From Nemertoderma westbladi (lineage: Eukaryota > Animalia > Xenacoelomorpha), in the NCBI GenBank assembly GCA_032718475.1, contig JAUCBJ010000434.1, positions 55,298 through 119,297 of the forward strand: a stretch of 64,000 nt of DNA, written 5' to 3'. Positions 8,440-55,968 of the stretch are shown here, piece after piece (position 1 is the first letter of the stretch; every line of letters begins with the position of its first letter). The notes below the pieces were generated by a model that worked only from the letters and a program-made list of their open reading frames with translations, made no database searches and was not told where the DNA came from. The position numbers and the translations under genes are program-made.

Positions 8440-11400
8440 TTAAGTTGGGGAGTCCCTAGATGTCGGTTGGATTAGAGAAGTGGTCGTGGGAAGAGTTTCT
8501 TGCCTTCCATAGTTTCCGGAGAGTTCTCTGTCTCTTTCCAGTAAACATAAACGTCCCACTGGGCGATTGAGCTGTTGAGTCTCAAAGACTATCCCTGGTT
8601 TCTTAAAGTTCCGCCGCATGACGACGAGCTCTACTGATCGCACCAAACCATCGCTCGAGATATAAGTCTCGATGATACGTCCTGTTTGCCATCGCTTACG
8701 TGGGAGATCGGGGTCCACAATAAGCACCATGTCTCCAGCGCTGACGTTTTCTTGCTGCGCAAACCACTTAGTTCGAAGTTGTAGAGTGGGCAGGTAATGT
8801 TTCTCGAAATGGTCAGCGAAACGACGGGATAGCAACTGCATAAGTTGCCAGGTTCGACGGCAGTACTCGTCTCCGTCTGTGATCTCCGATCGTGGGAGCA
8901 TGGCTACGGGTTTCTTCAGTAGAAAGTGCGCGGGTGTTAGCGCTTCCAGGGAATCAGGATTTGAAGAGACTGGCATAAGCGGTCTTTCGTTGAGATAGGC
9001 GGCGATTTCCTCCATTAACGTCCGCAATAGTTCGTCGGTGAGATAAGCGCGACAAGGCACAATAAAGTGGAACGCAGTCTTCACGCTCCTAATCAATCTC
9101 TCCCAACTTCCTCCCCACCAAGGGGCGTCGGCGGCGTTGAAGGTCCAGCTAGACGCTGTTATCCTTAGCTGATCGTCCACCTGTCTTTTGTTCCAGTCCT
9201 TTACGTAAGCTTGAATTTCGTTGTTGGCGCCAATGAAGTTCGTTCCCTTATCCGATCTCATCGTGTTACTGGTTCCGAAGCGAGCGATCTGTCGTCGTAA
9301 ACTCAACACGAAGCTGTTGGTGGATAGATCGTTTACCATATCGAGATGGATAGCTCTACAAGTCATACAAACGAAGATGACACACCATCTCTTGACTATA
9401 GTCCGGGCACGATATACTTCAATAGGGCCAAATAAATCCACACCGGTATTAGTAAAGGGTGGTTCATAGAAGCTTACTCTTTCCCTAGGTAATTCTGCCT
9501 CTCGCTGTGTTAAAGGCCTACTGAATGCTTTCTTACAGGGTATGCAGTTCCTAAGAACTTGGTTCAGAGCCCTACGGGGTTTATAAAAATAGTAGCGAGT
9601 TCGAATTTCGCTCAGAACTCGTTCTCTTCCAGCATGGTACAGTTTGCTATGGACATCTACAATCATCTTGATTTGTATATCAAGATTTCTAATGAGTATG
9701 GGAAACTTAGTGTCAAAGGATAATGGGGCGTTGGTCAGCCTACCTCCAACACGTATTAACCCATCTATCATGGTACTAGAGAAGCGATCCCTTAAGCGCA
9801 TCTGCGGATTTCTTAACAACAGGAAATACTTATCGGAATCCTCATAGCATTGTAGGAGTCTCAGCATCTGTTTGTTGGTTTCATCATGCTCCTGGTAACT
9901 GATCTTCTCCTTTAGAAACCTGTTGGATACCTTGTATTGGGGAAGATCTTTAACAACATGGACTCGTGCAGATGTTGATGGAGCATCATCACTATGGGTC
10001 TTTGTCCCGGAGTAACGATGATGAAAACATCGTTTTAAATAGGTGACGGCTTTACAGAGCCGATTCCAGGAACTGTAGTGACGTATCGCTCTCTGCAAGA
10101 GAGGTGAGAGTCCTTGCGCGATATCTGGTATTCCAGATTTCCAATCCTTGTCACGGATTTCCAAGACTTCTTTCGTCGTGGCGGTGGGTTTCTGATCCAA
10201 AGCATCATCTCCGGAAGTAAATAATACAGATAGATCAACCGCAGGTTTAAACAACTTCGATTTACTCGCTCGAGTTTTGGGTTTAACTTTCTCCGCTCCC
10301 TTGGCCTGTCTGATCTCTGCTGTTGTGAGATGAGGAGGCCATTCTTCTTCTTCTCTGTAGAGAAAGTCGGGTCCTCCTAACCATTCGGGAGTATTTACCA
10401 ATTCCTTTGGAGTCGCTCCTCGGGACGCGATGTCTGCTGGATTAATCATTCCGGGGCAATGTCTCCATTGGTCCATCGTCGTGCGACTAAGTATGATGGC
10501 TACCCTGTTGGTAACGAAGACGCTGAACTGACAGACTTCATTGGTTATATACTCTAACACGAGTAAAGCGTCGGTCCAATAGACAGTTTTCTCTAATGTA
10601 TAGTCAATCTGTTCGGTTACATTCCGGCCGATGGCTGTAGCGTATAGAGCCGCTTTTAACTCCGCTCGAGGAACTTTCAACTTGTTGTTGATTAATGCCT
10701 TAGAAGTAACCAAGGCGACTTTGATTCCATCCGGAGTTTCCACTCTTAGGTAGGCTACTATACCGATTCCCATATCGCTGGCGTCTCCAAACACATGGAG
10801 TTGATAGGAATACGTAGGGAGAACATGACCAAAATATGAACGGGAAATTATAAAATCCTCGATCGCTGGCAGCGAATCTTCCCACTTCATCCACTGCTTC
10901 AATAATTCCCCCTTAAGTGGATCGTCCCATGAGTGGTTTTCAAGCCACATTTGTTGTACCAAACTACGAGCAATCAATATAACTGGGCTAATAAATCCCA
11001 ATGGATCGAAATAAGTGCTCAGTATACTTAAGCAAATCCGTTTGGTTCGAACAGGATTATCTCGCTGTTTTAGTTGGAAAAACAGGATATCTCTCTCTGT
11101 GTCCCATTTCAAGCCGAGTGTCTTGGTTTCTGGCAGATCATCTTTGATCAAATCGAGATCTTTCGCTCCGCGATCTTCCGCAGGAATCGACTCCAGAAAC
11201 TCACGGGAGTTGCTGGTGAATTTTGTTAATCGAAACCCACCTCTTTTTAAGCACTCTACCGTTCCCTTAGCGACCTCAATGGCTTCCTCAACTGATGGAA
11301 GGGACTTCAGATTGTCGTCCATGTATATGTCTCTCTTGATGTTGTCGATCACTTCCTTAGAGAAGGCCTCTCTGTTGTCCTCTGCAGTAGTACGCACTAC

Positions 11401-14400
11401 CGAACAGGCGTTGGAAGGGCTTGAGATTATCCCAAAGGCCTGGATGGTCATCCAGTACTCCACCGGTTGCTGGTTGAGATCTCCTTCGGGCCACCATAGA
11501 AATCGTAGGCTATCTCGATCCCTATCCAACACTTTGACTTGCAAGAACATGCCTTCTATATCGGAGGCGAAAGCAATCGAATATTGTCTCAATCTTAAAA
11601 GAATTCCCAACAAAGATTGAAGCAAGTTGGGTCCGGGTAACAATTCAGAGTTAAGGGATTGACCCATGTAAAGAGCGGAGCCATCAAACACTACTCTCAC
11701 TTCATTAGGTTTACCGGGTTTAGGAACGTAATGGTGAGTTAAATAATACGTTCTTTCAGTCACAGGTGTTTCTTCCGGTACTCTCTCCGCATATCCCTTA
11801 TTAATGAATTTTTCCAGCTGTGTTTGATACATTGCTTTAGCTGATGAATTAGCCGTAAGGCGTCGATGGAGTTGCGCGATTCTTTTTTCCGCCAAAGGTC
11901 TGTTATTGATGAACTTCGGTTCTTTCTTGCGGAAAGGTAAACCGACTTCATACCTACCTTGATCTTTGAGGAAACATGTAGTTGTCTCTTGGATCTGCTT
12001 GGCCCTTTCCTCTTCCACCGACAAGGCTTTATCGTAGGAATTGGGCTCTACCGCCTCTTGCGTAAAGAATCGTACAGCATGTTCATCCCGAATCTTGGCA
12101 TTATGACGCTCAATGACGTCATTTAACTCGTCGTTATAAGCTTCTCGTTCAGATGGATAGAGAAGTTGACATAAGTTCACTTGGTTTTGCCAAGCCTCGT
12201 TTTCCTTAAGGAGATCGATGGTATTCTCCTCATCAAAAAGCTGGTGAACGTCGTCGTTATCTGAGGAGTATGGAATTCCCTCAGTTGAATCGTCTCCCTC
12301 ACTAGCATCCTCTTCCCATTCACTCACTTGGCAGACTCTCTCTTGCGGTAGTCTTTCTTTGAGTGTTCTACGGGAAGGGCCAGTAAAATACCATCCTACT
12401 CTAGTTCTTACCGCATAGGTCTGTAGGGGCTGCGGTTGAGCAGGCCGTTTCTCTAATGTCTCCAGCGCCTCATGCGCGTTTTGGCCGATGAGTATTTGCA
12501 CTCCAGGATAATCAGTCTGGAATCGAGGTATGTTAAGATGTTGGATGCTCTCATCCTCGTCCCAATTATAAAGGTCTGCTTGAGTAGTAGCGAAGTTCTT
12601 TATAGCCACCATTTTCACTGACCTTATGCTGTGTTCTCCTAGTTCGTCTTGTGGGGTGGACAACGCGCCTACATAATAATCAGCTGTTATTGTAGATTTC
12701 CAAACTTGCATAATGCCAGACATGTTGAGCTTAGTTTGGAACTTGGGCTGTCCAGCAAATATATCTTCGGCTAGCTCTTTATCGATGAATGTTCCTGTGC
12801 TGCCGGAGTCCAGGAGGGCGTTCACTACATAACTCCGTTTGGGTCCGTGCACCCTTACTTGCACCACAGGAAACTCTCGGATCCCTACATTGGAAGATGG
12901 TGCTTTCCACGATGGTTGTCGCTCAGAAGTAGTTAGAATGAAGTCGCTGTCTGTATCTTTTTCATATGTAAGTGCTCGATACACTGCGGTATTTATCATG
13001 TAACAGGATTCGTTTTCGTCGGAGAACTCATCCGTATAGAATCCTTCCATCTCAGATAGATCAGTGTCGTTCACATCACTGAATTGGACATGTAGTTCGG
13101 AATCACTTACCTGATTAGGACTATTTCGATCGAATTCAGCGTGCAACAAGATATGATGTTTCGCACCACACTTTGCACACCTTATGTCTGAGTAACAGGT
13201 TCGCCGTTGATGTCCTTGTCTGAGGCAGTTATAACACAACCGCTTGTCCCACATGACTTCACGTCTATCCTTTAGTGATTTCCTCAGGAATTTATCACAC
13301 GCATTTAAACGGTGGGGCCCGTCGCACAGCACACATTTGGGCTTGATGTTACTTACTTTAACATGTGCTGTGTGGTGCACACTTGTTCTTTCCTCGGGCT
13401 TTCTCACCTGAATTCTTTTAGGAGACGTAGGAGGGGTTTTTTGTACCGGTTCCCTTCTGTCATTGGGTCGAGACTTGGATTTACTTACCTGATCTTTAGG
13501 CATTTTATTGACATAAGATCTGTCAGTGTCTTTCCCGCTGTCCTCTCCTTGAGAAGTTTGGCTTTCACCGTCGTCGGTATAACATACTGGTATTACCCTT
13601 CTCCTAGAAACGGGTTTCTCACTTACCTTACTTTCCGCTGTCTTCTCTCTGGACTGCTTTATGAGCTGTAATTTCACCTCGCTATCCAGGAATGACATGA
13701 GATCAGCCATGGTAGGGTCTCGTTGTTGTTGTTCCATCATATATAACACCTTCTTGTCCCAGCGTGTACCTACTCCACCCTTGGGCAAAGTAGATGCTAA
13801 GGCTCCTACAACCATAGAATTCTGGTATTCATGAGACTTACCTAACCAATCTAGTTGTCTACAGATCTCCTGAATCTCATCGGAAAACTCTATAATCCCG
13901 CTGCTAAGAAACTTTCGGGGCGCCATTAATTTCGCATATAAATACCTAGCTATGTTAGTCTTATTACCATACCTGATGTTTAGTGTATCCCAAACTTGTC
14001 TTAATCCATCTGGATGTCCAATAAATTTTAACGCCATTGACTTGGGAGGTCCTTCCAAACACTCGATGAGGTATCTAAGTTTTTCTCCATTAGATAGTAC
14101 AGAGTTCTGTATGTTATCTTTGTAATATTCATTAAAAGGTAACCATTTCATCTCATCTCCATTGAACTTGACGATCTCTCCCACCTTTACCGCTTGCCGG
14201 GCTTCGGTTCTAGCCATTTGACGCGTAAAACTTTCTTGGGCCATCGTGTTATTTAATATCGAGTTATCGGTATATAAATTTCTCGGATTATGATCCGGTC
14301 TATAGGGAATATCATTATCAACAGGTCTATAATTACCCTTAATAGGGTTCACTATAGGAGTTTCTACTTCGCTAGCAGTATAGATGCGTGTAGGCTCCAC

Positions 14401-16536
14401 ACCTTGCGCATGCGATACTTCAGACCTAACAGGTTGACACATTGTTACAGAGGGTGGTGGTATACCCTTTTGGGTGTTTACTAATTTATCGCGTTCAAGC
14501 GCGATACTTTGCTGCACTTCTTGCAACTCTAACCTACTTTCCCTTACTGTGCCCTTGAATTGTTGGACAGTCTCCTGCATCTGCCCGAGCAGGAGATCCA
14601 TCCCCCGTCGTCTCTCGTCCACCCATTCGACCGCCGAAGCGGGAGTCGCCAACGTTGTAGCGGGCGGACGAGGGACAACGGGCGACAAATCCGGAATATT
14701 TCGCTCGGGGTCCAGGACCTGAACTGTCGCCTGGGCAGTTCTACTGGGCACAGGTAGCTTAGTGCTATGTAGAGGGAATTTAAAAGTAGCTTCAGGGAGC
14801 ACAGGTGTGTCTATCACCGAAGGGGTGATTTCAAGAACAGGCCTAATTATTTCAGGCTCATCTACTATAGTAGGGAGTCTTTCTATTGTAATTATTTGGT
14901 CTGTGGGCTCTGTACTACCTAAGTTGGTGTTATTTAGTTGCCTTCTAACAGCTGGAGGCAAATCAGGCAATTTCTGACGGTGGAATGTTCTTTTACGTCT
15001 GCTTAGGCGAGGTCGATTTCCTCCGCCTTCAGTGTCGGTGGTATCGCCTTCCTCAGATGATGTATACCCCTGTCTCTTGGGAGTAGATCGACTCATCATC
15101 TGCATATTGCTCGCTGTTAACTGTTTATTGAAGTTGTCTTGCTTCTCTTGAAGAATTTCCAACTCTAGTTGGGTTGCCTCTTCAGATGCCCTCCATTCTG
15201 CTTCTACCACTGCCTCTGCTGTTGCCAGTGCCGCCTTTCTTTCTGCTTCGGCCGCTGCCTTTGCTGCTGCTACTGCCGCTTTTGCCTCTGCCGCTGCCAC
15301 TGCCGCTGCCGCTTTTGTTTCTGCTTCTGCAGCTGCCACTGCTGCTGCTACTGCCGCTGCCTTTCTGTCTTCTATACGTTTTTTCTTTACTTGTTCTTCC
15401 TGGACCTTAACGACGCGGAGTTGTTCATCGAATTTAGCTTGATTAGCCGCTAACCTATCCACGTCGATGGCGTCAAGCACACGCTGTGCTCCTTCACTAT
15501 TAGGGCTAAGTCCCTCTAGTCTTCTCCGCAACTCTTCATCACCTACAAAACGTTGATAGTCTGACAGATAGATGTCAATGGCATCCCTCTTATGCGGTTT
15601 CTCTGCCGTCGCTTCACTTTCCACTTGGGAAAAAGTAGCGTCTGTTGATTCTCCATGGGTTGATCGCTCCTCTAGCTGAGCTTTCCACTGAGCAGTTCCT
15701 TGAACCTGGAGATTCACCCTTTGAAACCAAGTCTTGACGGCGACTTGCAACGACGTGTCTTGTCTTCGTTTAGAAGCCTCCTCAAAGGCCGATAATATTA
15801 GCCTGATTCGTAGAGTTCTTTCTCTAACTTGATAAAGCAGCAATCCCTGCTCTTGAGGTCCTTGCGATTGTTGAAAAAGTTGCTTTTCTACTCGCTCCAT
15901 AGAGCTGAAGAATCCCTGTGCATATCCGGCTGCGGACCTCTTCCACACAGCTGGATCGATGGTTTCCTTGGCTACTCCCATCCGGTGTATGTCTTCCCAG
16001 GCAGCTTCTGATAAATCAAACGGGAGTCCGGGTCCGGGGAAGTTCCATTGCGACTCGACAATAGACTTCAGTTCTTCACTCGTGTATCCCGCGTAACTAT
16101 CTCTAGTTGACCGTTGACTTCTCGCCCAATCGATCTGGTGTTCTTCCACCGCGATCAATAACCCAGCGAGCACGGCTGCAGGAAGGATGAGAAGGGGATC
16201 CGTATAAACCGCATCCGTCATCTCTGCTCCGCGCTCGGGTGTCAGCTCTACAGTATCCTCACTACTGGAGCTGCTGGGCCGCTGAGGAATAAGTTCTTGA
16301 CTAGCGGGTTGTTGTTGTTCCGCTGCTTGTTGGTCCCGCTTGACCTGAGCTCGGGTGCCTATGGTAGACCTACGATGTTGGACTAGCCTAGGTTCTGTTA
16401 TTACTACTGGAGGGATGACCTTCCTCACAGTGGGGGGTGAACTGAACTTACGACCAGACGGTTGTACGTCTCTATCTGAGTCGCAGATAGTTACATCTAA
16501 TAAACTGTCTGACAGGTTCTGCTTAGTATCAGACAT
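8440..16536 (-). CDS. BEL/Pao Gag-Pol polyprotein (2698 aa)
   Basis: Gag DUF1759-like segment (KFNGDEMKW..EKLRYL), three Zn knuckles (CVLCDGPHRLNAC, CYNCLRQGHQRRTC, CAKCGAKHHILLH), protease ALLDSGS, RT YMDD, RNase H HVFGDAS, integrase H..H..CIPC / GVDLFGP / SDKGTNF / GGSWER. Domain order PR-RT-RH-IN. Confidence 0.97.
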   Translation of the reverse strand: MSDTKQNLSDSLLDVTICDSDRDVQPSGRKFSSPPTVRKVIPPVVITEPRLVQHRRSTIGTRAQVKRDQQAAEQQQPASQELIPQRPSSSSSEDTVELTPERGAEMTDAVYTDPLLILPAAVLAGLLIAVEEHQIDWARSQRSTRDSYAGYTSEELKSIVESQWNFPGPGLPFDLSEAAWEDIHRMGVAKETIDPAVWKRSAAGYAQGFFSSMERVEKQLFQQSQGPQEQGLLLYQVRERTLRIRLILSAFEEASKRRQDTSLQVAVKTWFQRVNLQVQGTAQWKAQLEERSTHGESTDATFSQVESEATAEKPHKRDAIDIYLSDYQRFVGDEELRRRLEGLSPNSEGAQRVLDAIDVDRLAANQAKFDEQLRVVKVQEEQVKKKRIEDRKAAAVAAAVAAAEAETKAAAAVAAAEAKAAVAAAKAAAEAERKAALATAEAVVEAEWRASEEATQLELEILQEKQDNFNKQLTASNMQMMSRSTPKRQGYTSSEEGDTTDTEGGGNRPRLSRRKRTFHRQKLPDLPPAVRRQLNNTNLGSTEPTDQIITIERLPTIVDEPEIIRPVLEITPSVIDTPVLPEATFKFPLHSTKLPVPSRTAQATVQVLDPERNIPDLSPVVPRPPATTLATPASAVEWVDERRRGMDLLLGQMQETVQQFKGTVRESRLELQEVQQSIALERDKLVNTQKGIPPPSVTMCQPVRSEVSHAQGVEPTRIYTASEVETPIVNPIKGNYRPVDNDIPYRPDHNPRNLYTDNSILNNTMAQESFTRQMARTEARQAVKVGEIVKFNGDEMKWLPFNEYYKDNIQNSVLSNGEKLRYLIECLEGPPKSMALKFIGHPDGLRQVWDTLNIRYGNKTNIARYLYAKLMAPRKFLSSGIIEFSDEIQEICRQLDWLGKSHEYQNSMVVGALASTLPKGGVGTRWDKKVLYMMEQQQRDPTMADLMSFLDSEVKLQLIKQSREKTAESKVSEKPVSRRRVIPVCYTDDGESQTSQGEDSGKDTDRSYVNKMPKDQVSKSKSRPNDRREPVQKTPPTSPKRIQVRKPEERTSVHHTAHVKVSNIKPKCVLCDGPHRLNACDKFLRKSLKDRREVMWDKRLCYNCLRQGHQRRTCYSDIRCAKCGAKHHILLHAEFDRNSPNQVSDSELHVQFSDVNDTDLSEMEGFYTDEFSDENESCYMINTAVYRALTYEKDTDSDFILTTSERQPSWKAPSSNVGIREFPVVQVRVHGPKRSYVVNALLDSGSTGTFIDKELAEDIFAGQPKFQTKLNMSGIMQVWKSTITADYYVGALSTPQDELGEHSIRSVKMVAIKNFATTQADLYNWDEDESIQHLNIPRFQTDYPGVQILIGQNAHEALETLEKRPAQPQPLQTYAVRTRVGWYFTGPSRRTLKERLPQERVCQVSEWEEDASEGDDSTEGIPYSSDNDDVHQLFDEENTIDLLKENEAWQNQVNLCQLLYPSEREAYNDELNDVIERHNAKIRDEHAVRFFTQEAVEPNSYDKALSVEEERAKQIQETTTCFLKDQGRYEVGLPFRKKEPKFINNRPLAEKRIAQLHRRLTANSSAKAMYQTQLEKFINKGYAERVPEETPVTERTYYLTHHYVPKPGKPNEVRVVFDGSALYMGQSLNSELLPGPNLLQSLLGILLRLRQYSIAFASDIEGMFLQVKVLDRDRDSLRFLWWPEGDLNQQPVEYWMTIQAFGIISSPSNACSVVRTTAEDNREAFSKEVIDNIKRDIYMDDNLKSLPSVEEAIEVAKGTVECLKRGGFRLTKFTSNSREFLESIPAEDRGAKDLDLIKDDLPETKTLGLKWDTERDILFFQLKQRDNPVRTKRICLSILSTYFDPLGFISPVILIARSLVQQMWLENHSWDDPLKGELLKQWMKWEDSLPAIEDFIISRSYFGHVLPTYSYQLHVFGDASDMGIGIVAYLRVETPDGIKVALVTSKALINNKLKVPRAELKAALYATAIGRNVTEQIDYTLEKTVYWTDALLVLEYITNEVCQFSVFVTNRVAIILSRTTMDQWRHCPGMINPADIASRGATPKELVNTPEWLGGPDFLYREEEEWPPHLTTAEIRQAKGAEKVKPKTRASKSKLFKPAVDLSVLFTSGDDALDQKPTATTKEVLEIRDKDWKSGIPDIAQGLSPLLQRAIRHYSSWNRLCKAVTYLKRCFHHRYSGTKTHSDDAPSTSARVHVVKDLPQYKVSNRFLKEKISYQEHDETNKQMLRLLQCYEDSDKYFLLLRNPQMRLRDRFSSTMIDGLIRVGGRLTNAPLSFDTKFPILIRNLDIQIKMIVDVHSKLYHAGRERVLSEIRTRYYFYKPRRALNQVLRNCIPCKKAFSRPLTQREAELPRERVSFYEPPFTNTGVDLFGPIEVYRARTIVKRWCVIFVCMTCRAIHLDMVNDLSTNSFVLSLRRQIARFGTSNTMRSDKGTNFIGANNEIQAYVKDWNKRQVDDQLRITASSWTFNAADAPWWGGSWERLIRSVKTAFHFIVPCRAYLTDELLRTLMEEIAAYLNERPLMPVSSNPDSLEALTPAHFLLKKPVAMLPRSEITDGDEYCRRTWQLMQLLSRRFADHFEKHYLPTLQLRTKWFAQQENVSAGDMVLIVDPDLPRKRWQTGRIIETYISSDGLVRSVELVVMRRNFKKPGIVFETQQLNRPVGRLCLLERDRELSGNYGRQETLPTTTSLIQPTSRDSPT

Positions 16537-17859
16537 GACTATGTATGTACAGTTGAATGCCTACTGCTATATTACAGTCTAAGCAAGTCTAGTAACTCAG
16601 TATTAACTGCTAGCCTAGTAATTAATTACCGGTACTGCTACTCAGTGTAGCGTGATATATAATATATTATAATACCGGTATGCTTATAGTATATATAACT
16701 ATTATTACAGACTAGGTTTATCACCGAATACCGGTATAATTTTAGCACAAATATATATAAATATATAATAGGCCTATCGTAAATACCGGTATACAGCTGA
16801 CAGTTTGTAGTGTATATATAAGTATAGTTATTAACTGAATTAATTACAGAATACCGGTATGCTTTCAGCACAAATATAAATATTATAATAGCCTATCGTA
16901 AATACCGGTATATCAATTATTTTAGAATAATTGAATTTCTGAACTTTTAGGGTTACTTGGTTACTTTAACTTACTTTATTACCGTTATTTAAGCAGTAGT
17001 CTAACTGATATTGAGACCTAATTGTTGGATGGTAGGCCTACTATTTATAAATCGTTGGAGTTGATTTATAATATATATATACCCGTTTTAATGGGTTTTG
17101 TCAATTTTGAAATAAATGTTATTATTTCTGGGGAGTAATCACTACACAAAGCGGTGCGCTTTCAGTGAAGTGTTACTTATAAGACACTAAAACAAATAAT
17201 ACTAATTTACCTAAGTTACTTAATACTACAAATTACTTACAATTCGGGTGAGATTACAATCTCTAAATAAACACAAAAATTTACAAAAACACAAAATACG
17301 AATTTTTAGGGTAATTTTACAAGAAGTCTACAAACCAGCCTAACAAAGGGTTAGATAACCGATTATTACACGGACAGGGTACTACGGTATTTGAAATAAT
17401 AAGTAGTAGTAAATACACTGCGTTGTCTAGATAGGAAAATACCACCGCCTGACGACCTATAGCCGTATCGCTATAGGTTCTACGTTATGTATCACGGAGT
17501 GTTCCTACCTAGAAGTTAATAGAGCTAATCGAATGTGCCTATCAACCACTTTACAACACAGATATAATGTCTACACTAATTACTTCGGAAAGTACTGTAC
17601 ACTAAACCCTAAATTAGGTACGAGTACTTGTATAACATATAATCAGTAGTTAAATATACTTGAACAGCTAAAAGAACCACAGCATCTGCTGGAGTGACCG
17701 ATGCACAAAATCACCAGTCTTTACCTACGCCAAGCAGCCCGTGTAGTACCGGGGTTAATTTAACTATAGCGGTATGTATAACAAACACAATTACTGTAGG
17801 AACAAACTTGGGGAATGAATGTTGCGAATAATCGCATAAACTCTGAATAATAAATATTA

Positions 17860-18430: not shown

Positions 18431-18678
18431 ATCAGGCTTACACGCCTTCTGTTCAATACTGGCCTACAAACAAATAAAACTTGACAGAAATAAGTAAAAG
18501 TCTCAATAAAAAACCAGGGCGGGCCCTCCCTGATTAATTATTAAGGCCTACCGGTATATAATTATCAAAATCGAATAATACTGCTGTAGGTACCGGTCCG
18601 GATGATCAGGCAGTCAGGCCTACTGGTTACCGGTCGACCAGTACTTTCGACTTTATTGCTTACTGCAATAAAGAAGCA

Positions 18679-18689
18679 ATATCCGTTAT
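18679..18689 (-). other. Non-tRNA primer-binding site of BEL element 1 (sense ATAACGGATAT)
   Basis: Directly follows the 5' LTR end, has no TGG, and is the exact complement of LTR positions 19445-19455. Confidence 0.75.
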
Positions 18690-19920
18690 TGTTCGCGCTT
18701 TCAGACCTTTGGCAGTTTAACCCGCCAAATTAGGATGTCTGTTAGATAATAAATCACTTTAGCCGATGACAAATATTTGATTCACTACACTAGTCGAAAC
18801 CAATCTGTGCGCGATCATTCACCCGCTGGATAATTCCCGGGAGATTGGGTTCGACGGCTTAATTTTATTGCTATGTAAGCTTAATGTATTATTCGACTGA
18901 CAGTATTATATAATCTCTGACAATATTATTCACCTTCGGGAATATTAACAGTTCCTTTAGGACGTGGCGCTTTATTTATATAAACAGAGTTATGACTTAA
19001 ACTACTCACAACAATATGGCTTAATTATAATTCACATATATGGCGCATTCTTTAGGAAATGCTTCGTTATCAGTATCACTCGCACACAATGCTGCACAAT
19101 ACTGCACACTGATCTGCCGATCTTCACTGATTTTAGTTACATATAAAAGGAACACGGACTGACTCATGTAGGGGCTATCAAATAACATTAGATTCACTTC
19201 AAACCACTTTAACATAAGTCACAATCGTTATGTATAACCTTTCTCTCTTACCTTCAGTATATCAAGAATATTGGGTTTTCGGGGTTATTTATCGTTATTC
19301 CAAATATAATAATTCATCAACCAAATTATGAAGTACAGACAGCAAATAGCAGTATAACAATATAAAGTATGCACAGTGTTACACAGTATGCAGTGTATGC
19401 AGTACTGCAGTATGCATTGATTGCATTGAGTTAGGTTAGTCAAGATAACGGATATATGTCCTTATGATTAAGCCTACTAGTGTACGGCTAAAACAGTAAA
19501 GCACAAAATACTTCCAAGCCGTTCTTTCTTTGGCTCAGGACTGAATGTAAACACTGCACATAAGCATTGCGTCATTTCTCGGAAATTTTCTGTACAAGGA
19601 GCCACAAAAACGCTCTAATTGGCTGACTGAACTGAGAGACGCCGTAGAACAAAGGAAATCAACACGTATGAATGTCAGCTGTTAACCGTAGTCATAGTAA
19701 CTACTGTTCAAGAGTAGCTATCACCCCTTTGCGTCACGAATTGCCATAGAATCATAAAATATGCCTTTCACAGTACACATACGGAGGAAATAGGTCTTAG
19801 ATCCTCTAAAAACACCGATACAGCAATAATACGGTCTCTTACACTTATTAAATCAACTACAGAGTATTTTAATGTAAAAGATAATAAAAATAACGGGGCA
19901 ATTCAGCAAAGGCTTTTACA
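18690..19920 (-). repeat. 5' LTR of BEL element 1
   Basis: Direct repeat of 4246-5476. Sense strand reads TGTAAAAGCC...GCGCGAACA. Confidence 0.97.
19445..19455 (-). other. Candidate self-primer / transcript 5' end of BEL element 1 (sense ATATCCGTTAT; second copy at 5001-5011)
   Basis: Perfect 11-nt complement of the PBS. Pairing stops at both flanking positions. Confidence 0.65.
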
Positions 19921-34387: not shown

Positions 34388-35840
34388 ATACTACTAGTAT
34401 CGGCATGCTACAGTGCAGCTGCATTTTTAAGAATGCTGTGCCGGCTTGTCGACAAAATTGCGCCGCCACAACTCCCTATCACCCATGACATTTGCTAGAT
34501 CATCCGCATCTTCAAGGCCAGTGTCCTTTAAGATGCGTCTCTAGAAAGTCATGGGCTGTCCACCATGCTTATTCACTCCATGAGGCTGCCAAAGTACAAG
34601 ATTATGCACTGGCTGGTCCTCACGGCGAAAGCAATGTCCTGCAAAGCGGAGGCGATTTTGTTCTAGTGTCAAGCTTGGGGGAACCAATGAGACACCTCCA
34701 ATGTTATATAGTGTCTGGTTGGAGATGTGTGCATTGTACTTGACACAATGAACCCGGCGTAGCATTCTTGTGAATGTGCCATCCAGAGATTTGGTGTCCT
34801 CAGCAGTTAGAGCCCAGCATGGACTCCCATAGAGGAGTACTGGAACTACTGCTGCTCTAAATAATCGGACCTTAAGTTTCCGAATAATTCTCGGTGACTT
34901 CCAAATCCTGGAAAGCCTATTCAAGGCTGCCCATGCCTTTCCCTTACGTATTCGAAGGTCCTCACCTGACTTTCGGATCCATGATCCCAGGTAACAGAAG
35001 TCGTCCACATGCTCAAGCATACCATCCTTTGAGCTTATGCTCATCCGATCAGAGACTTGCTGAGAACTTTCAAAGTTAACTGTCAAAATTTTGGTCTTTC
35101 TGGAGTTAATAAAAAGACCAACACTAGAAGCAGCATGTTCTAATGAGCTGAGGAGCCGTTGGGCTCCCTCTAGTGATTCTGAGAGTACTCCTAAGTCATC
35201 AGCAAAGTCTAGATCAGTTAGGTACTTGGCAGGATTTCCTCGACTTCTGGAGCCAGTAGGTGGAGTTATCATCACCCCATCATCATTATGATGATCTAAG
35301 GACATGCGTAGAACATAGTCAACCACAATTACGGACAAGAATGGTGCAAGTGTGTCTCCCTGGAGGACGCCCCATAACACTTCAAATGGTTCTGTGTCAC
35401 CATCAACAGTAGACACAAATGTTGTCAAACCATCGTATACTGATCTGATTGCTGCAATAATTTCATCAGGAATCCCATATAATGAAAGTATGCTGAACAT
35501 ACGTGAGCGGGAGACTGAATCAAAGGCCTTGAATAAGTCAACAAAGATAACAGCCAGATGCCTGTCTTTCTTTTTTGATAACTCTTCAATTATCCTTCTA
35601 AGTGCCAAAATGGGTTCCATGGTCGCACGACCTTTACGGAACCCATTCTGATTTCCACGGAGCAGTCTCTCAATGGGATCCCTGATGCGATTTAATATAA
35701 TTCTATTGTATAGCTTTGCAGCAATCGAGATCAATGAGATTCCCCGAAAAGAACCATAGAGTGTTAGGTTGCCCTTCTTGGGAACTGGCACCAACTTATT
35801 TGTTTTCATATCTTGTGGGACTCTTGTTGTCACTGGTGAG
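34388..35840 (-). mobile_element. 5'-truncated non-LTR retrotransposon (RTE-like), RT domain and C-terminus
   Basis: Motifs FRGISLIS, QNGFRKGR, FVDLFKAFDSV, GVLQGDTLAP, LDFADD, FCYLGS and VLLYGSPCW. Ends in a short TAG-rich tail. Confidence 0.92.
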
Positions 35841-36193
35841 ACATAGGGATGGGGAAAGTTGACGCAAATCTCGATAAATTAATAATAATATATCTTCAGA
35901 TGAATTACAAATATTCGAATTTATCATTTGAATTCAGCATTGAGGGGGGTCCCCTCCCCTGTAGTGCCCGTTATTTTAACGAAAGCAAAACTATAAACGA
36001 ATTTAATACAGTAATAATAGGCTACAGTTTAATACAGTAATATGTTCTTAAATAATTCGGCTGTTATTTGCTTCGATTTTCCCCATGGAGAGTGACATAT
36101 TTTATATCTTTTAGGGCCACCTGTACAGTTGTAGGTCTTAGACAGTTAGGCCTATCATACTATACAATACATGATTACATTAGTTAATTAATA

Positions 36194-37156
36194 ATGGGGA
36201 TGTTTTGTGGAAGTAGCCAATCACGTAATTGGATGTTTTCGTCTAAAGGAGAATTAGACCAGGTACGTGAGGAAACAAACACGCGATTCCATACGGCGAA
36301 CAACCCGGACGGTACCAGAATCGATTTCTTAGACGAACTGGAGGAACAAATGATAATACAGTTCTATTTGCGGGAGGTGCAGGGATTGTGCAGTTCGTTT
36401 AGGCCTGCCGTCCCCAAGGCTGTTATCGGCACTGCCTGCTCTTATATGAAGCGAATAGCCTTAGGAAACAGCGCGATGGATTACCATCCCAAGGACTTCT
36501 ACCTCCCGTGTTTATACCTAGCGACAAAGGTGGAAGAGTTTAACGTGTCCATCGTGGAGTTCGTTAGAAACATCCCCGGCCCCGGGGATAAACGTCGTCT
36601 CGCTGAAAGAATAACGACCCTAGAACCCAAAGTTATTCATCTACTAAACTACCAACTCATAGTTCACAACCCATTTCGAGCCATCGAGGGATTTATTATC
36701 GATTTGAAAAGAATCGGTTCTCTTCAGAACGTCGATAAACTAATAAAAAAAGCTGACGAATTCATCCTGTGGTCGCTCTACACGGACGCTAGTTTGCTGT
36801 ACTCTCCGTCGCAAATCGCTTTAGCCGCTTTATCTTACAGCAGTAATAAAAATAAATGCTCGCTGGATCCGTATATGCACGATGTTTTATTTCCGGGAGG
36901 ATCTGTCGACGCGATAACGGCTGTTATTAAATCGATAATTAAATTGGTTCGCTCTGTTCGTATTCCCGAGGAAGGGATGATCGTTAGGTTGTTAGAACGG
37001 CTCGAACGTTGTCGAAACGCAGAGCTCAATCCCGACTCTGAGGTTTATAAGGAGAGGGAGAAGCGATTATGGGAGGAAGAAGAAGGGATTCAGGCTGAAA
37101 AACAAGCCGTTATTTACGCGAAAATACGCCAGGAAGAGGAACTTATTTTGGGTTGA
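36194..37156 (+). CDS. CCNH: Cyclin H (CAK/TFIIH subunit), single exon
   Basis: Motifs MFCGSSQSRNWMF, VIGTACSYMKR, MDYHPK..CLYLATKVEEFNVS, LNYQLIVHNPFRAIEGFIIDLK and LLYSPSQIALAA. AATAAA follows the stop. Confidence 0.95.
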   Translation: MGMFCGSSQSRNWMFSSKGELDQVREETNTRFHTANNPDGTRIDFLDELEEQMIIQFYLREVQGLCSSFRPAVPKAVIGTACSYMKRIALGNSAMDYHPKDFYLPCLYLATKVEEFNVSIVEFVRNIPGPGDKRRLAERITTLEPKVIHLLNYQLIVHNPFRAIEGFIIDLKRIGSLQNVDKLIKKADEFILWSLYTDASLLYSPSQIALAALSYSSNKNKCSLDPYMHDVLFPGGSVDAITAVIKSIIKLVRSVRIPEEGMIVRLLERLERCRNAELNPDSEVYKEREKRLWEEEEGIQAEKQAVIYAKIRQEEELILG

Positions 37157-47370: not shown

Positions 47371-47453
47371 ATTATTAAACAGACATGTAACAATAAATAC
47401 TACAGTAGTAAATCAAATAGGCCTATACATACATAGCCTATGGGTCTATACTA

Positions 47454-47953
47454 TGTTACAGATTGTACATGACCAGTAAAAAAATACCCCTTATTTCGTG
47501 CAATGCTTGTAACAAGTCAGCTCGAGCATATTAGCCCAGCTTCAATATAATATAATATTTATAATTTCAGCTGATATCTACTACTATACATTCTTGGCCG
47601 GGTAATCTAATTGCTACATTCACTATTCAACTCTCACCAGTTATCACCACCTCTAATACCGCATACAATGACAATAAGACACATTGACCTATGACAGCTC
47701 TCCTTTACAACTTCCCTGTCCCTTCGTATCTCAACCTATTTAATCAACTAACAACCACGATGAAATTCATTCTGTTATTAGGGAATCCGAAGTCTATCTT
47801 TTTACCGAACATATTTTGATGATATTAAATTCTAACATTCTTCAATAAACATTCCTGTTATTACTATTATTTTATCACAATGTTTTTCGGTCATTAAGAT
47901 TAAATCACGCATAACTGACAGAATCAGAGCAATTAAAGTAAAAAACGCTCACA
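47454..47953 (+). repeat. 5' LTR of BEL element 2
   Basis: Direct repeat of 55364-55862 with about 9 substitutions and 1 indel counted by eye. AATAAA at 47844-47849. Confidence 0.95.
47795..47805 (+). other. Candidate self-primer / transcript 5' end of BEL element 2 (TATCTTTTTAC; second copy at 55704-55714)
   Basis: Perfect 11-nt complement of the sequence following the LTR. It starts ~50 nt upstream of the LTR poly(A) signal, as expected for the start of R. Confidence 0.65.
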
Positions 47954-47964
47954 GTAAAAAGATA
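47954..47964 (+). other. Non-tRNA primer-binding site of BEL element 2 (GTAAAAAGATA)
   Basis: Abuts the 5' LTR, has no TGG, and is complementary to 47795-47805. Confidence 0.75.
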
Positions 47965-48614
47965 CACCAGTCTTTTTAATACCGTCTTTACGGTTGATCA
48001 GAATATAACCATATTATATTTGGTTACTAGGCATTGTTAAATACATATTGTAGATACAGTAGCAGTTGTAAGTGGTGGATCCGACGATAAACTACAGCTT
48101 ACAAATCGAGTTTCAAGAGGATAATCGAGCTGCTCGAGTTCAGGATGGATAAAACACTGACGACTGTGAAGTCGACGGAAATGAAGGTGAGTTTATTGAC
48201 GCTCCCCGTACATCAACGGTACTAGTTGCCCAACATAACACGTACGAACCCACTGGGACTGAAGGTATGTCCAATGCTTCTGCACCTGGACAAGCCAGTA
48301 ACCACACTCTACGTCGTGATAGAAATGACGCAGGTGCCAGGGCTCGAAACTAAGGGACCACGTGTGTACAAAACCCTCCAGACTTAGAAGTATTTAACCG
48401 TTCTATTGCAGGACATAAAGGATATTTTTCCAAGAAAAGAAACATTTTCTTTCAGGATATACGAATACCGGGAGGTTTAGACTTAGTGCCTCCAACCTAT
48501 AAGGAGTGTGTAACTTCTTACAACAGGATATGCGAAGCATACCAAGTATTTATAGAAAAATTATATGACAATAATTTTTCTAATGAAGCGAATAAGCTTC
48601 AGGGATAATTCGAA

Positions 48615-51600
48615 GTGCTAGCAGTAGCTCTCCAGGGGGATCTACAAGAAATGTCTCACCTTATATCCTCAGGTTCAACTGCAGCCGTTGTGGATAATAA
48701 TAATTTTATTACAGATAATGGTTTACATAAGCCCACTATTAGCGTTACTGATCAATTTTCATCGGCGCAACTTCCATTGAAAAATCCAAAGCGCCCCACA
48801 CATGACCGAGCGTCTGTAAATAATAGTAGGCCGGGCTCAGTTACGTCTACTGCTACCAAATTAAGAGCTCAAGAAAAATTAGAAAGCTTAAAATTAGAAC
48901 AATTAATTCGAGACCAAGAATGTGAGAAACAAATTAGAGATCTAGAGAATGAGCGAAAGCTGTGTCAACAGAGAGACAAATTAAACGCGCTAAAATTAGC
49001 TACATAATTGGCAGAAGAGGAAAATAATGGTGGTACACAGGATGCTAGTGTAAATTATAAATTAACAGATAATATAGATATTGAACCAAGCCACAATCCA
49101 GTTACTACAAAACAAGACATCGTCGGTAAATCTCAGAAAACATCTTATGTCGTCAATAATCTACACACAGAGTGCACCTCGCAATATGGCACCCGGCGAA
49201 AATATAGGAATATCTCCTATACATACGATGATGAATAGCTTTAGTTATCATCCTGCACGTAATCCAACCCCCTTTATAAATAGTAGGCCTAGTACACATG
49301 CGGGAGGGTTAACTAGAACTACAGATATAAATGCCTATGTTAGCCCAACAAATAGGCCTTTAAATGCGCACTGTCCTGCGTATATACCATCTGTTTCGAT
49401 CACCACTGCGGGTGGGCAAGTTACCTCATGCCATATGATCCAATCTGTTGGTTCTAACCCATGTAACTTTACAAACACCGAAAGCAATACAAATATACCT
49501 ACAGCAGGAGACCCATCTTGCATTAACAGCACGGGCTATCATTCTGGCTATAGACAACCATATCAAAACTACAGTAATTGCTCCATTGTACGTCGTAATT
49601 GTACCATTTGCTCCTGCAGAGACATACGTGTCTACACCATCACAGTTCACTCAATTGAACAACTCTGCTGCTGAGATAACATTTTCCGCCTTAGACAAAC
49701 TAAACACAAGATTGACCTTACCTCAACTTGAACCCATTAAATTTAGTGGTGACCCCGGGCAATACATATCCTTCACATCAACCTTTAGAGCTCAAGTGGA
49801 CCTGAAACCCTTTACAGAAATGGAGAAATTTTCATATTTATTGAATTATTTAACAGGTGAACCTCTGCACTTAATATCTAGAAGTCTAGATGGTCCGCAA
49901 ACCCAAGAAATACAGCATCTAGAAGATGCTGCAATTTGCAATATCGAAAATGTAGAGCCAGTGAGTACTACGCCTAATGTGTGGCTGTCTGTTGTACCAG
50001 TAAGGATCAAGGTAGAAGGTAAGTCACTAACAACATATGCGCTACTCGATGGAGGCTCCACCAGCTCAGTAATAGACACACTAATTATAGACACATTACA
50101 AATTACAGTTCCTGAACAAGTCGAAATAAAGGCCAAGGTGGTATTCGACCCCTGTAAGTTAGTTCAAGTTGGTAAACTATCATTCCAGGTAACCCCTGTA
50201 GATGGCAAAATACAGACCAAACGTGGATTTTTCTTAGACATGAAACATGTTTACGTAGTTTCCCAGTACACCCATAAGTATCGTAACGACCACACTAAAT
50301 TAAATTTAAACAACTGGCCACATCTACAGAATCTAAGCCCACTACTAGAAAACCCCGACATAGATGTACCGCAGGTTATTATTCTAATTGGGCAGAATTA
50401 CCCTCAAGTACATAGAAATGACAAGATCCTAGAGGTCGATGACCCAGAAGCACCCATAGCTATCCGAACACCATTTGGATGGTGTGTTGTTGGACCAGTA
50501 AACCAGGAAGAAGACCCAATAATGAGTAATAATTATTTCATTCAAGAAGATATGGAATTCCAACAAGGGACAAACGCACTAATTTTACAATCCCTAGGAC
50601 TAGAGCAATATGGCCAAGCAGAGAAGAGTACTTATACTTCAGAATTAAAGGAGGAGGAACTTAGTATGTCAAGGAACGACAAAAAGGCGCTAAAAATACT
50701 ACAAGACACTACTAGTTTCATAAATGGGCATTATTGCGTAGGAATGCTCGGGAAAGAGCGACCACCAGTATTGCATAATAATTATCCCTTAGCTAAGGTA
50801 AGGTTGCAAGGGTTTAAAGAGATTAACAGGTAAACTGGATAAATATCTGCTTTATGATAATATGATAAAGGAATATGAAACTAAAGGCAACGCGAGAAAG
50901 CTAGATTTAAGTGAGCAACAACATGTAAGCAATCAAACGTACTACTTGCCGCACCATTATGTGGAGCGCGCAGCAAAACCTGGCACATTACGCATTGTAA
51001 AAGATGCCGCCGCCAGATACAAGGGGGAATGTCTTAATTACTGCCTCTTACAGGGTCCTAACTTGACAAATAAAATTATAGGAATTCTATTGCGTTTCCG
51101 CAAGGGAAGCATTGCCTTCATAGCAGACATAGAAGGCATGTATCATCAGGTGAAAGTCACCGATGAGGATAGCGACAGCTTAAGATTTTTATGGAAGCCA
51201 ATAGGTAGTAACCAAATAGAAACTTACAAAATGCTTGTACATATATTTGGTGCTACAGATTCGTCGTGCATTGCCCACCCACACTCTAAGGAGAACCGGG
51301 TTGGATAATGCAGACGAATTTGATGAAAATGTAATAAACAGTGTACTAACATCATTTTATGTAGATGATATCTTTGAATCCTTAGATACAGTTCCAGAAG
51401 CAATAGACCTGGCTCAACAACTCATTGCTTGCCTTTCCAAAGGTGGGTTTAGATTACACAAATTCATGTCTAATTCTAGAAAGTTTTTAGAGGCATTGAA
51501 TGTCTCACACTTAGGTAAACAATACATAAACTTAGACCTGGACAACGTCCCAGCCACAAGAGTGTTGGGTGTCATTTGGGACACCCAATTGGATAATTTT

Positions 51601-54066
51601 AACTTTAATTTCCAGAAAAAGGATGCCCCTCTAACTAAGCGAGGATGTATAAGCGTTGTAAACTCAATATTTGACCCTCTGAACTTTTTATCCCCCTTTG
51701 TAGTGAAGGGAAGATTAAATGTACGAGATATATGGCATTCCGGTATTGGTTGGGACGAACCAATACCACAGGAATACATCAAAAAATGGACCAAATGGTC
51801 TCAACAGATTGCCGAACTGTCTGTCATACAGATACCCAGAGTGTACCATAGCTTTACTCAGGCATTAGAAAATATTAAGTACCAATTACATCACTTTTGT
51901 GACGCCTCCGAAGTAGCATGCGGTTGCGTTTCATATCTTAGAGTTGAAATGGATGGCCATATAACAGTATCATATTTATTTTCCAAGGTTGAAATTTCCT
52001 CAGTTTCTAGCGGGTCGTCAATGCCCCGGCGGGAGTTGCAGGCGGCAGTAATAGTCGCTGACGTTGGCCGAACTCTCAAGGAAGAACTCAACCTTAAAAT
52101 CGTTGGTCTGACTCCAAAGTAGTTCTAGGATACATAAACAATGAGGACAAAGAGTTTAAAAGGTATGTAACTAACAGAGTAAATCATATTCTAGAACAAT
52201 CCGAATGTAACCAATGGCTTTTCATTCAAGGTGAACTAAAACCAGCCGATGACATTAGCAGGGGACTCAGTACTAAAAGATTGAAGGATTGTCATCAATG
52301 GTAGTATGGGCCCACTTTCCTTTCTCAAGACGAATCCCAATGGCCCGGAATCCAAAACAAATCAGAATGGACCGACGCCATTAGAGATGATCCTCATGTG
52401 AAAATTCAATATACGGGCGAAATATCAGAGGTCGATAATGATAGTGAAGTTTCTGATGACGTCACGGAGGGGACAGAGGATTTCTGGTATAGTATTCTGG
52501 AAGAACTTCACACCAAAAAGGTAAGATTTAAGGACAGTTGTGAATCAGACATGAACGACAGCACAATAGAAGCTATCACTAAAATTATAGAGGGGAATTC
52601 ATCCTGGAATAAGGTAAGAATATTATTTGCCTGGTTGATAAGGTTATGTAAGTACTCTATCGATCCGTGCAAGACTATCATGTTAAAAAAACACCGTGGT
52701 AAGTGCTCAGGAGCTAGAAAAATCCGGCAAAAGGCTTCTGTTCTTTACACAAACGCAAACATTCAAAGAAGAATATAAATGTCCATCTAATAAATCCCCA
52801 GTGCCTAGAAATAGCCCTATTGCAAAGCTTAGCCCCCACCTAGGTAATGACGGATTAATCAGAGTAGGTAGTCGTATCAGTAAGGCACCCATATCATATG
52901 ACGCCGCATACCCAATTATACTACCAAAGAAACATTCAATAACATGGGCGTTGATATGGGACGTACATACAAAATTAGGTCACGCAGAATACTCACACGT
53001 TGTATGTAAGCTTAGAGAAAAATATTGGATACTGAGCGTACAAGCAATAACTAAAGCCATGACTGGAAAATACTTCATCTGCCGCTGGATTAAATCAAGG
53101 CAAATGGAGCAATTAATGTCACCATTACCAGCATCGAGACTAACACCATACGAGCCCCCATTCACTTATTCCACAGTGGATATGTGGGGACCCCTATACA
53201 CTTTAAGAGGTTGCAGTACCACTAATAAAAGATACGGAATATTATTCACATGCCAAAACTGCAGAGCAGTTCATCTTGACATCGCAATGAATGCATAGCT
53301 GACGCATTCATCAACGTGTATCATCAGTTTATATCCCGATGGGGCCCCCCAAAGAGGGTCGACTCTGATAACGGCTCAAACTTTATCGGGGCCGAGTCAG
53401 AACTTAGAAGTAACTTACAAACCTGGGAAGATGAGTTAGTTGAATTCTCAAGGCCGAATGGGACTGAATGGCACTTCTTGGCACCACTAGCGCCCCACAC
53501 GGGTGGAGTATGAAAGGTTAATACAGATAGCTAAAAGGACCATTCTAGCCATAATTAATAAAAATTTAGTAACCGATGACACATTACTCACAAGTATAAC
53601 AGAGGTGGAATCAATAATGAACAGTTGGCCGCTTAGTATCGTAAATAACAACATCACAGGTGAGGAACCACTCACACCTAACCACTTCCTTCTACAGCGT
53701 CCTGCCTACAACGTACACATAGGGCCAGTTTACGATAGTGACTCTTATTCTACTCGTACTTGGCGTCAATCCCAGCTAATAGCCACTAACTATTGGGAGA
53801 GGTGGCTCAGGGAGTACGTAGTGACTTTACAAACCAGAAACAAATGGAACCGTGAACGTGATAACCTGCGGGTAGACAACGCAGTACTGAGCTATGACGA
53901 TCATCAGCCTAGATCACAGTGGCAATGGGGACGTATCATCCAAGTGTTCCCAGATGCCGACGGAATTGTCCGCCATGCTTCAGTTAAAACTCCAGCAGGG
54001 GTTTATAAGCGTCATGTAGATAAGCTTTGCTTATTAGAATCTGATGTTATATCCATTGAAAAATAG
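48615..54066 (+). pseudogene. Frameshifted BEL/Pao gag-pol (true start probably further upstream, ~48150-48270)
   Basis: Motifs IKFSGDP..EKFSYLLNYLTGEP, ALLDGGS, YYLPHH..LRIVKDAA, FYVDD, HHFCDASE, VDMWGP, SDNGSNF and LTPNHFLL, spread over several ORFs. Confidence 0.92.
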
Positions 54067-54656
54067 AAATGTTTACATTATATTACCTTAATTATTTTCG
54101 GCATTCATACAGTACTCTTGGAAACTCCCAGCAATGTAGATGCAATCAGAGGCATGTACCGTACCTCAGATGAGACAACGGACAACCACAAAGGGCAACC
54201 AATAGAAGATAATAAAGAACATTAATTATTCATATGAACCATAAATGACGGTGAAGGGACTTTTACAATAATATATTTCTCTATGTTGTGCATTTTATAT
54301 ATAGTATTATACGCACTGTTTGTATGTAGTTCAATGTTTATTGCATTTATATATTTAGTATTATAGTTTGTGCGATATGATTTCTCACTAACACTCACTA
54401 ATATTTATCTCATTTCTCTCATTTAACATTTCTCTCAAACATTATTATCAGACTATATTGACAAGACTAGTTTCGACCACAGAGACAGAACGAAATAATC
54501 TAAAATCGTCACTCTAGTCTATGCTATATACTATATACTAGCTATGTTATACTGTACTATACAATCTCTATAATAATCGATATTAAAATAAAATAAATAA
54601 ATAGATAAATAATAAAATTTAAAATTAAAAACAAATTAATAATAATAGACCCTTAT

Positions 54657-55310
54657 AAGTAGACGCGGGCAAACAGTCTATTAGCGCCCTTCCCCCACAA
54701 AAAAAGGAAAGTAGACAGGGGCAAACAGTCTACTAGCGCCCTTCCCCCACAAAAAAAGGAAAGTAGACAGGGGCAAACAGTCTACTAGCGCCCTTCCCCC
54801 ACAAAAAAAAGGAAAGTAGACTAGGGCAAACAGTCTACTAGCGCCCTTCCCCCACAAAAAAAAAGGAAAGTAGACTAGGGCAAACAGTCTATTAGCGCCC
54901 TTCCCCCACAAAAAAAGGAAAGTAGACACGGGCAAACAGTCTATTAGCGCCCTTCCCCCACAAAAAAAGGAAAGTAGACAGGGGCAAACAGTCTACTAGC
55001 GCCCTTCCCCCACAAAAAAAGGAAAGTAGACAGGGGCAAACAGTCTACTAGCGCCCTTCCCCCACAAAAAAAAAGGAAAGTAGACTAGGGCAAACAGTCT
55101 ACTAGCGCCCTTCCCCCACAAAAAAAAAGGAAAGTAGACTAGGGCAAACAGTCTACTAGCGCCCTTCCCCCACAAAAAAAAGGAAAGTAGACACGGGCAA
55201 ACAGTCTATTAGCGCCCTTCCCCCAGTAGACAAGGGCAAACAGTCTACTAGCGCCCTTCCCCCAGTAGACATGGGCAAACAGTCTACTAGCGCCCTTCCC
55301 CCACAAAAAA
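54657..55310. repeat. 52-54-bp tandem array (~13 copies, two shortened to 39 bp) in the 3' UTR of BEL element 2
   Basis: Unit AAGTAGACAGGGGCAAACAGTCTACTAGCGCCCTTCCCCCACAAAAAAAGGA. Confidence 0.95.
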
Positions 55311-55363
55311 AAAATAAATAAAATTTTTTGAGATTTTGGCTTCGCAATATCTCAAGGGGGGAC

Positions 55364-55862
55364 TGTTACAGATTGTACATGACCAGTAAAAAAATACCCC
55401 TTATTTCGTACAATGCTTGTAACAAGTCAGCTCGAGCATATTAGCCCAGCTTCAATATAATATAATGTTTATAATATCAGCTGATATCTACTACTATACA
55501 TTCTTGGCCGGGTAATCTAATTGCTACATTCACTATTCAACTCTCACCAATTATCACCACTCTAATACCGCATACAATGACAATAAGACACATTGACCTA
55601 TGACAGCTCTCCTTTACAACTTCCCTGTCCCTTCGTATCTCAACCTTTTTAATCAACTAACAGCCACGATGAAATTCATTCTGTTATTAGGGAATCCGAA
55701 GTCTATCTTTTTACCGAACATATTTTGATGATATTAAATTCTAACATTCTTTAATAAACATTCCTGTTATTACTATTATGTTATCACAATGTTTTTCGGT
55801 CATTAAGATTAAATCACGCATAACTGACAGAATCAGAGCGATTAAAGTAAAAAACGCTCACA
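55364..55862 (+). repeat. 3' LTR of BEL element 2
   Basis: Direct repeat of 47454-47953, preceded by the PPT and followed by the TSD. Confidence 0.95.
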
Positions 55863-55968
55863 TACTATACCATGTTGCATTAGTCCACTGTCACAAACTC
55901 AGCCAGTTGTACTCTTAAAGTGACAGCATACAATTTGAATTTCCCTCTACCCAATTCATCCAATCCAA

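Follow-up and report, generated by a model that had tools for sequence, protein, structure and literature searches.

Self-complementary PBSs in a BEL/Pao retrotransposon lineage point to likely Tf1-like self-priming, with a primer predicted to be built by splicing in most families

In the 64-kb stretch of DNA analysed here (the window), two BEL/Pao elements carry, directly beside the 5' LTR, a PBS whose 11-nt complement lies in their own LTR, and this self-complementarity, judged from sequence, is a lineage trait of BEL/Pao. We consider it likely that these elements prime reverse transcription with their own RNA in a Tf1-like manner, that this was reached by convergence, and that splicing builds the primer in most families. 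With somewhat less confidence, and still favouring it on balance, we propose that a major aquatic BEL/Pao lineage swapped tRNA priming for a self-primer assembled by the spliceosome from two LTR exons. Splicing would then gate reverse transcription, the unspliced 3' LTR copy would be unable to compete for the PBS, and intron-less LTRs would be processed derivatives that arose repeatedly.

Table 1. Features of the two BEL/Pao elements, in positions of the window.
Feature	Position	Strand	Remarks
5' LTR, element 1	18690..19920	-	1231 nt; 3' LTR 4246-5476; TSD AATTT
Predicted self-primer, element 1	19445..19455	-	contiguous, 11 nt; 3' LTR copy 5001-5011
PBS, element 1	18679..18689	-	offset 0, no TGG
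gag-pol, element 1	8440..16560	-	single open frame, 2706 aa; DUF1759, Peptidase_A17, Integrase_H2C2, DUF5641
5' LTR, element 2	47454..47953	+	500 nt, TG...CA; without GTRAG splice donor
3' LTR, element 2	55364..55862	+	LTR pair
TSD, element 2	left 47449..47453, right 55863-55867	+	5 bp, TACTA; empty-site joints in runs X1-X3
Polypurine tract, element 2	55354..55362	+	purine run preceding 3' LTR
Predicted self-primer (anti-PBS), element 2	47795..47805	+	contiguous form; 3' end AC; predicted cut after 47805
3' LTR copy of self-primer sequence, element 2	55704..55714	+	exact sequence match
PBS, element 2	47954..47964	+	offset 0 from LTR end, no TGG
AATAAA poly(A) signal, element 2	47844..47849	+	38 nt downstream of primer end; kept in 3' LTR
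gag-pol, element 2	49078..54066	+	broken into several frames; Peptidase_A17 in 51220-52122, DUF5641 in 53491-54066
Predicted local stem-loop competing with primer-PBS pairing	47796..47900	+	minimum-energy fold, z -1.88
Predicted hairpin competing for PBS	PBS with about 47970-47978	+	minimum-energy fold

Element 2 belongs to BEL/Pao by its LTRs, TSD and polypurine tract and by its Pol domains (Pfam: Peptidase_A17, E 5e-39; DUF5641, E 8e-29), with the integrase downstream of RT-RNase H. It shares with the Belpaoviridae the TG...CA LTRs, the 5-bp TSD, the polypurine tract, the pair of Peptidase_A17 and DUF5641, and the place of the integrase. Its RT-RNase H is 44% identical to BEL/Pao loci, and the top BEL/Pao relatives come from sea urchins, corals, fish and a nemertean. 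There are 10 differences between its 5' and 3' LTRs. The original prediction had held the two elements to be unrelated; this is true of their LTRs, between which blastn found no significant match (best E 0.21), and not of their RT-RNase H, which is 39-44% identical. Element 1 has a 2.1-kb leader (16561-18689) and a Gag with a stretch rich in alanine; the 755 nt that separate its primer from the LTR end far exceed the distance in any other of the 32 families described below. A tandem array of a repeat of about 52 bp occupies 54605-55325 in the 3' untranslated region of element 2, upstream of the polypurine tract.

According to the ICTV profile of the Belpaoviridae, LTRs of 0.2-1.2 kb flank gag-pol, an 18-nt PBS serves a host tRNA-Arg or tRNA-Gly, and replication is poorly understood (PMC8742986). 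Such an 18-nt tRNA PBS is absent from element 2, where we found no tRNA-type PBS and where the first TGG comes only 67 nt past the LTR. Element 2 is BEL/Pao by its proteins, yet it departs from the priming described for BEL/Pao. A motif starting with TGG at 48073-48087, some 120 nt past the LTR end, resembles a tRNA site, and we take it to be too distant to define the LTR end. ARAGORN found no tRNA in the 64-kb window, and a search of the window with Rfam gave a single match at E=1, which is chance.

The PBS of element 2 reads GTAAAAAGATA. As originally predicted, its perfect reverse complement occurs in the 5' LTR and is conserved in the 3' LTR, at exactly the predicted positions, and the AATAAA at 47844 does lie downstream of it; no further reverse complement exists on either strand of the 64 kb. 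In dinucleotide shuffles of the LTR the 11-mer was present in 16 of 20,000 (35 of 20,000 if offsets of 0-3 are allowed), and a match of 11 nt was reached at 3 of about 7,350 other internal positions of the element. The 11-mer of element 1 occurred in 18 of 20,000 shuffles. From the position of the AATAAA, the R available to strand transfer is predicted to measure about 60 nt.

Other copies of element 2 were read from contigs of three public DNA runs (X1-X3; two samples), in which the contig depth of the family is several times the flank depth. The empty site is present in these runs as well, which shows the insertion to be polymorphic. The high-depth contigs have a different base at 47794/55703, which extends the match to 14 nt (to 47792), and pairing spans 14 nt in most other copies. 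Having exactly 11 nt is therefore a property of the window copy; the prediction of exactly 11 nt with no spacer and no TGG describes this copy well and fails as a rule, both for the other copies and between families, whose offsets range from 0 to 5 nt. Because the high-depth contigs run ungapped across the primer region, the common LTR of the family is intron-less. The 11-nt form stands in both LTRs of the window copy, so its template RNA probably also had no more than the 11-bp core. No variant falls within 47954-47967, the PBS region, among 40 listed of the 173 rows. Low-depth contigs of all three runs hold an LTR form without 109 nt (55616-55724), the predicted primer included, with joints from 55615 or 47706 to 55725; the ends of this gap are not GT-AG, and the form is likely a deleted or non-autonomous derivative. 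At 49878-49884 other copies hold about 970 extra bases, the window copy being internally deleted.

We then collected relatives through a 42-protein alignment, which gave 80 metagenome and 21 genome-collection loci, with more loci from individual genomes; 121 loci clustered into 89 families. The LTR end could be fixed by two LTR copies in 20 families other than those of the window (16 non-TGG, 4 TGG), and adding the window elements gave 18 non-TGG families with a fixed end. Dropped were L067 (its repeat is not a clear LTR), L093 and L159 (LTR pair of another element; inverted-repeat matches) and same-family duplicates, including L085, L007, L038 and L099. A search of viral contigs found no relative. 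As the families are related, family counts are not independent events.

An own LTR/PBS complement of 10-15 nt was found in 17 of the 18 non-TGG fixed-end families, against none of 7 TGG families. Seven of the 18, the window elements included, have a contiguous complement of at least 10 nt (10-11 nt). In other families, by eye, the LTR has only a 4-8-nt piece of the complement, placed right after a pyrimidine tract and AG, and the missing piece precedes a GTAAGT-like site upstream. A test for two-piece complements that made no demand on splice motifs found complements of at least 11 nt, joined exactly at GT..AG, in 10 of the 11 remaining families. Among 462 cross-family pairs the same test was positive in 6, and in none of these was a GTAAGT-like donor combined with a pyrimidine-rich acceptor. 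It was negative in all four TGG families tested, and in three additional TGG families the contiguous complement reached only 4-7 nt. With strict splice motifs, which were picked after the sequences had been seen, no cross-family pair reached 11 nt, and 2 of the 462 reached 10 nt. The sole fixed-end non-TGG family to fail is L090, where we see one mismatch by eye.

A held-out set was searched at a threshold of 11 nt. Of its 82 candidates 50 were dropped for lacking a gag match or having less than 400 nt upstream of gag, leaving 32 regions in 27 families, with the LTR end not fixed. Nine of the 27 families had a split complement and two a contiguous one, one had matches that came from an unrelated inverted repeat, and 15 had none, while 640 shuffles gave 3 split and 7 contiguous matches. 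Post hoc and by eye, 3 of the 15 misses could be explained (a 10-nt match, an AAG acceptor and a 1-kb intron), and one further contiguous family was noticed in the same way.

Together, 32 families are self-complementary, 22 with a split primer and 10, both window elements among them, with a contiguous one. In the split families the intron measures 76-1022 nt, donors are GTAAGT-like and acceptors pyrimidine-rich. Two LTRs, those of L011 and L043, have two GTAAGT sites upstream of the acceptor, of which the nearer alone builds the primer; alternative splicing at the other could yield a non-priming RNA. The perfect helix has 11 nt in 23 of the 32 families, 10 in three, 12 in three, and 13, 14 and 15 once each; since the held-out set was thresholded at 11, we note that 11 nt also prevails in 11 of the 17 self-complementary fixed-end families. 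A fixed rule of exactly 11 nt without spacer was rejected, given helices of 10-15 nt and offsets of 0-5 nt. There are 30 distinct 11-mers across the 32 families, and this, with the cross-family counts given above, upholds the claim that primer and PBS have co-varied between families, 11 nt being the modal length.

The 3' end of the primer is uniform, with A at position 10 and C or T at position 11 in 32 of 32 families, and the base after the primer is unable to pair in 30 of 32. Such an invariant end and sharp stop of pairing are expected of a cut site. Downstream of the primer, 23 families have an AATAAA or ATTAAA poly(A) signal and nine lack one. Beyond a bulge of 1-3 nt on the 5' side of the primer, a second helix of at least 4 bp is present in nine of the 32 families; among 992 cross pairs, 32 have one. 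None of 10,000 permutations reached the observed sum, in a test devised after the data had been seen; the score of the window copies is just 2. Since pairing sets in again on the 5' side of the 11-mer, and since other copies of element 2 pair over 14 nt, the RNA probably starts upstream of the 11-mer, in contrast to Tf1. The original prediction had placed the start of R, and of the transcript, at the 11-mer itself (47795), which these two observations do not support. No consistent TATA box lies at about -30 of the primer in the 32 families (L040 alone has one, 31 nt upstream), and by eye there is no common pyrimidine/purine step at its first base. L079 has two LTR forms whose similarity begins at the predicted junction, where one has an acceptor and the other the contiguous primer; two subfamilies may be joined in this contig, which does not reach the donor.

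A tree of 37 labelled RT-RNase H rows (LG+G4; L090, L091, L094, L101 and L169 left out for low coverage) places 27 of the self-complementary families in one clade with 100/99 support and no tRNA-type member. A larger clade, also with 100/99 support, takes in that clade together with the window elements, L040 and two TGG families; the window elements, which have long branches, join with weak support (86/53). Of five more distant TGG rows, three were chosen to carry the root. A single origin of self-complementarity (30 rows) was not rejected (p-AU 0.31), a result that does not establish monophyly. Contiguous and split primers require 7 changes on the tree and are found in sisters in three starred pairs, and the change count gives no direction; we infer that introns were lost through reverse transcription of spliced RNA. 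The original prediction spoke of a conserved mechanism of a BEL/Pao clade and no coincidence: the complement is indeed not due to chance and marks a large lineage, in which self-priming is likely. Between convergence with Tf1 and deep shared ancestry, which had been left side by side, convergence is likelier because tRNA-type BEL/Pao elements lie around, and possibly inside, the group, and we reject shared ancestry as the default.

Self-priming has been described for Tf1 and Tj1 (excerpts of PMC7175516 and PMC4600332); in Tf1, an 11-nt stretch of the element's own RNA pairs with the PBS and is then cut by RNase H (PMC7175516, in part). The elements described here resemble Tf1/Tf2 of Schizosaccharomyces pombe and, as far as the excerpted sources go, the Tf1/sushi group, Tcn1 and Tj1, in that the PBS beside the 5' LTR complements the own LTR over an 11-nt helix and there is no tRNA site. 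Unlike Tf1/sushi-type elements, whose Pol is of the Ty3/gypsy (chromovirus) kind, they have a BEL/Pao Pol by Pfam and by homologues, and are Tf1-like in working and not members of that group. The Tf1 RNA begins with the 11 nt; here some of the families show further pairing upstream, beyond a bulge, and in 22 of 32 families, unlike in Tf1, an intron splits the primer. Self-priming has also been predicted in Tcn1 and in the plant Ty1/copia TAR lineage (Houba, Osr-1) from an LTR complement of at least 10 nt to the region 0-5 bp past the 5' LTR (excerpts of PMC6317226), and element 2 has a complement of this kind. The TAR elements are Copia elements of plants, and the same excerpts mention no intron-split primer. 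The parts covered of PMC554778, PMC3118150 and PMC6238403 lack the terms PBS and primer, and those of PMC3601003, PMC8220671 and PMC3286476 hold nothing on BEL/Pao self-priming. In searches of open full texts we found no paper on BEL/Pao self-priming or on splice-built primers.

We envisage the following course of events. Transcription would start upstream in the LTR and, in the split families, host splicing would remove a cap-proximal GT-AG intron, joining the primer halves. The leader would fold back on the PBS, and the element's RNase H is predicted to cut just after the paired stretch (AC/AU), a cleavage that has been demonstrated for Tf1 and is only predicted for BEL/Pao here. The cut would yield a 3'-OH from which, by analogy with Tf1, minus-strand DNA would copy U5 along with the short R, which runs from the cut to the poly(A) site; all sequence upstream of the cut, intron included, would be copied from the 3' LTR. 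For the intron to be inherited, the 3' LTR copy would have to escape splicing, and a possible reason is that the exon ending at its donor is 6 kb long and not cap-proximal; occasional splicing of that copy would give intron-less LTRs such as those of both window elements. The primer may itself be copied into plus-strand DNA, in which case primer and PBS would readily co-vary; the Tf1 primer, as Atwood-Moore reportedly found in 2006, is not removed.

Folding bears on whether priming occurs in cis. The median pair probability of the helix is at least 0.5 in 15 of 22 spliced leaders as against 2 of 22 unspliced ones (the folded windows differ), and it is at most 0.01 in 7 of the 22 split families and in L165. 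In element 2 it is 0.23, and the minimum-energy fold puts primer and PBS into two separate local hairpins (Table 1), which makes simple folding in cis less probable for this copy, or would imply chaperoned refolding. The low helix probability in some families, the failure of L090, the 15 held-out families with no match, the nine families with no poly(A) signal after the primer, the broken window copy and the two tRNA-type families within the clade of the window elements count against self-priming. It is possible, and we think unlikely, that priming takes place in trans, with a short spliced LTR RNA or a second packaged RNA copy priming the unspliced genomic RNA. Priming in trans would account for introns persisting in both LTRs; promoter, intron and, in the 23 families with a signal after the primer, poly(A) site all lie within the LTR, and in several families, among them element 2 of the window, the helix is not folded in cis. 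However, most spliced leaders do fold it in cis, Tf1 primes from its own 5' end (PMC7175516, in part), and intron-less families need no such division between two RNAs.

The helix might instead be structural, acting in translation, packaging or PBS shielding, while a tRNA fragment or other cellular RNA is the real primer, as could be expected from the description of belpaovirids as tRNA-primed (PMC8742986) and from the half-tRNA primers of Copia elements (PMC6317226, in part). We find this rather improbable, since it is hard to square with a different PBS 11-mer in nearly every family, each matched by the own LTR, with pairing that starts at the spacing of TGG sites in relatives, and with the invariant 3' end that stops as sharply as a cut site. 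A chance match of A/T-rich, low-complexity sequence, which the T-rich primers in general and the five-A run in the 11-mer of element 2 might suggest, has a negligible probability and is rejected by the shuffle, cross-family (17 of 18 families positive versus 0 of 462 pairs at 11 nt or more) and held-out controls.

Self-priming is so far known or predicted, in the partly covered literature that we found, in some Gypsy and Copia lineages only. If Tf1-like self-priming holds for BEL/Pao, a third superfamily has independently reached the same 11-bp solution, which would point to a constraint set by RT/RNase H, and a splice-built primer would tie reverse transcription to RNA processing. Self-priming would also explain why such elements escape finders that rely on the PBS, and it makes base-exact predictions of the junction, the cut site and the R boundary.

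The survey of relatives yielded several further observations. A record of 1.44 Mb whose title names a Wolbachia chromosome contains, at L098:7608-13210, a BEL/Pao element that has an LTR pair and a TGG site and is either a host insertion or a mis-assembly. Several bacterial MAGs contain animal BEL/Pao contigs (L081-L101, G001-G010; 62 matches in G002), which represent host contamination. TGG-type BEL/Pao elements of 13 kb (L171-L174) have some 5-6 kb between the integrase and the 3' LTR, with room for a possible extra gene. At L093:1434-6153 a 331-nt LTR pair of another element adjoins the BEL/Pao element; from its PBS type we take this neighbour to be probably Copia-like and in reverse orientation.

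Within the window itself, a reverse-transcriptase frame with RVT_1 and DUF6451 lies at 34541-35878 on the reverse strand, with a diverged inverted second copy at 59786-60523. Domains of a ligand-gated ion channel (737-1987), an ALG9-like protein (29553-31196) and a cyclin (36188-37156) are encoded in one open frame each, and these host genes look intron-poor, like the primers of both elements.
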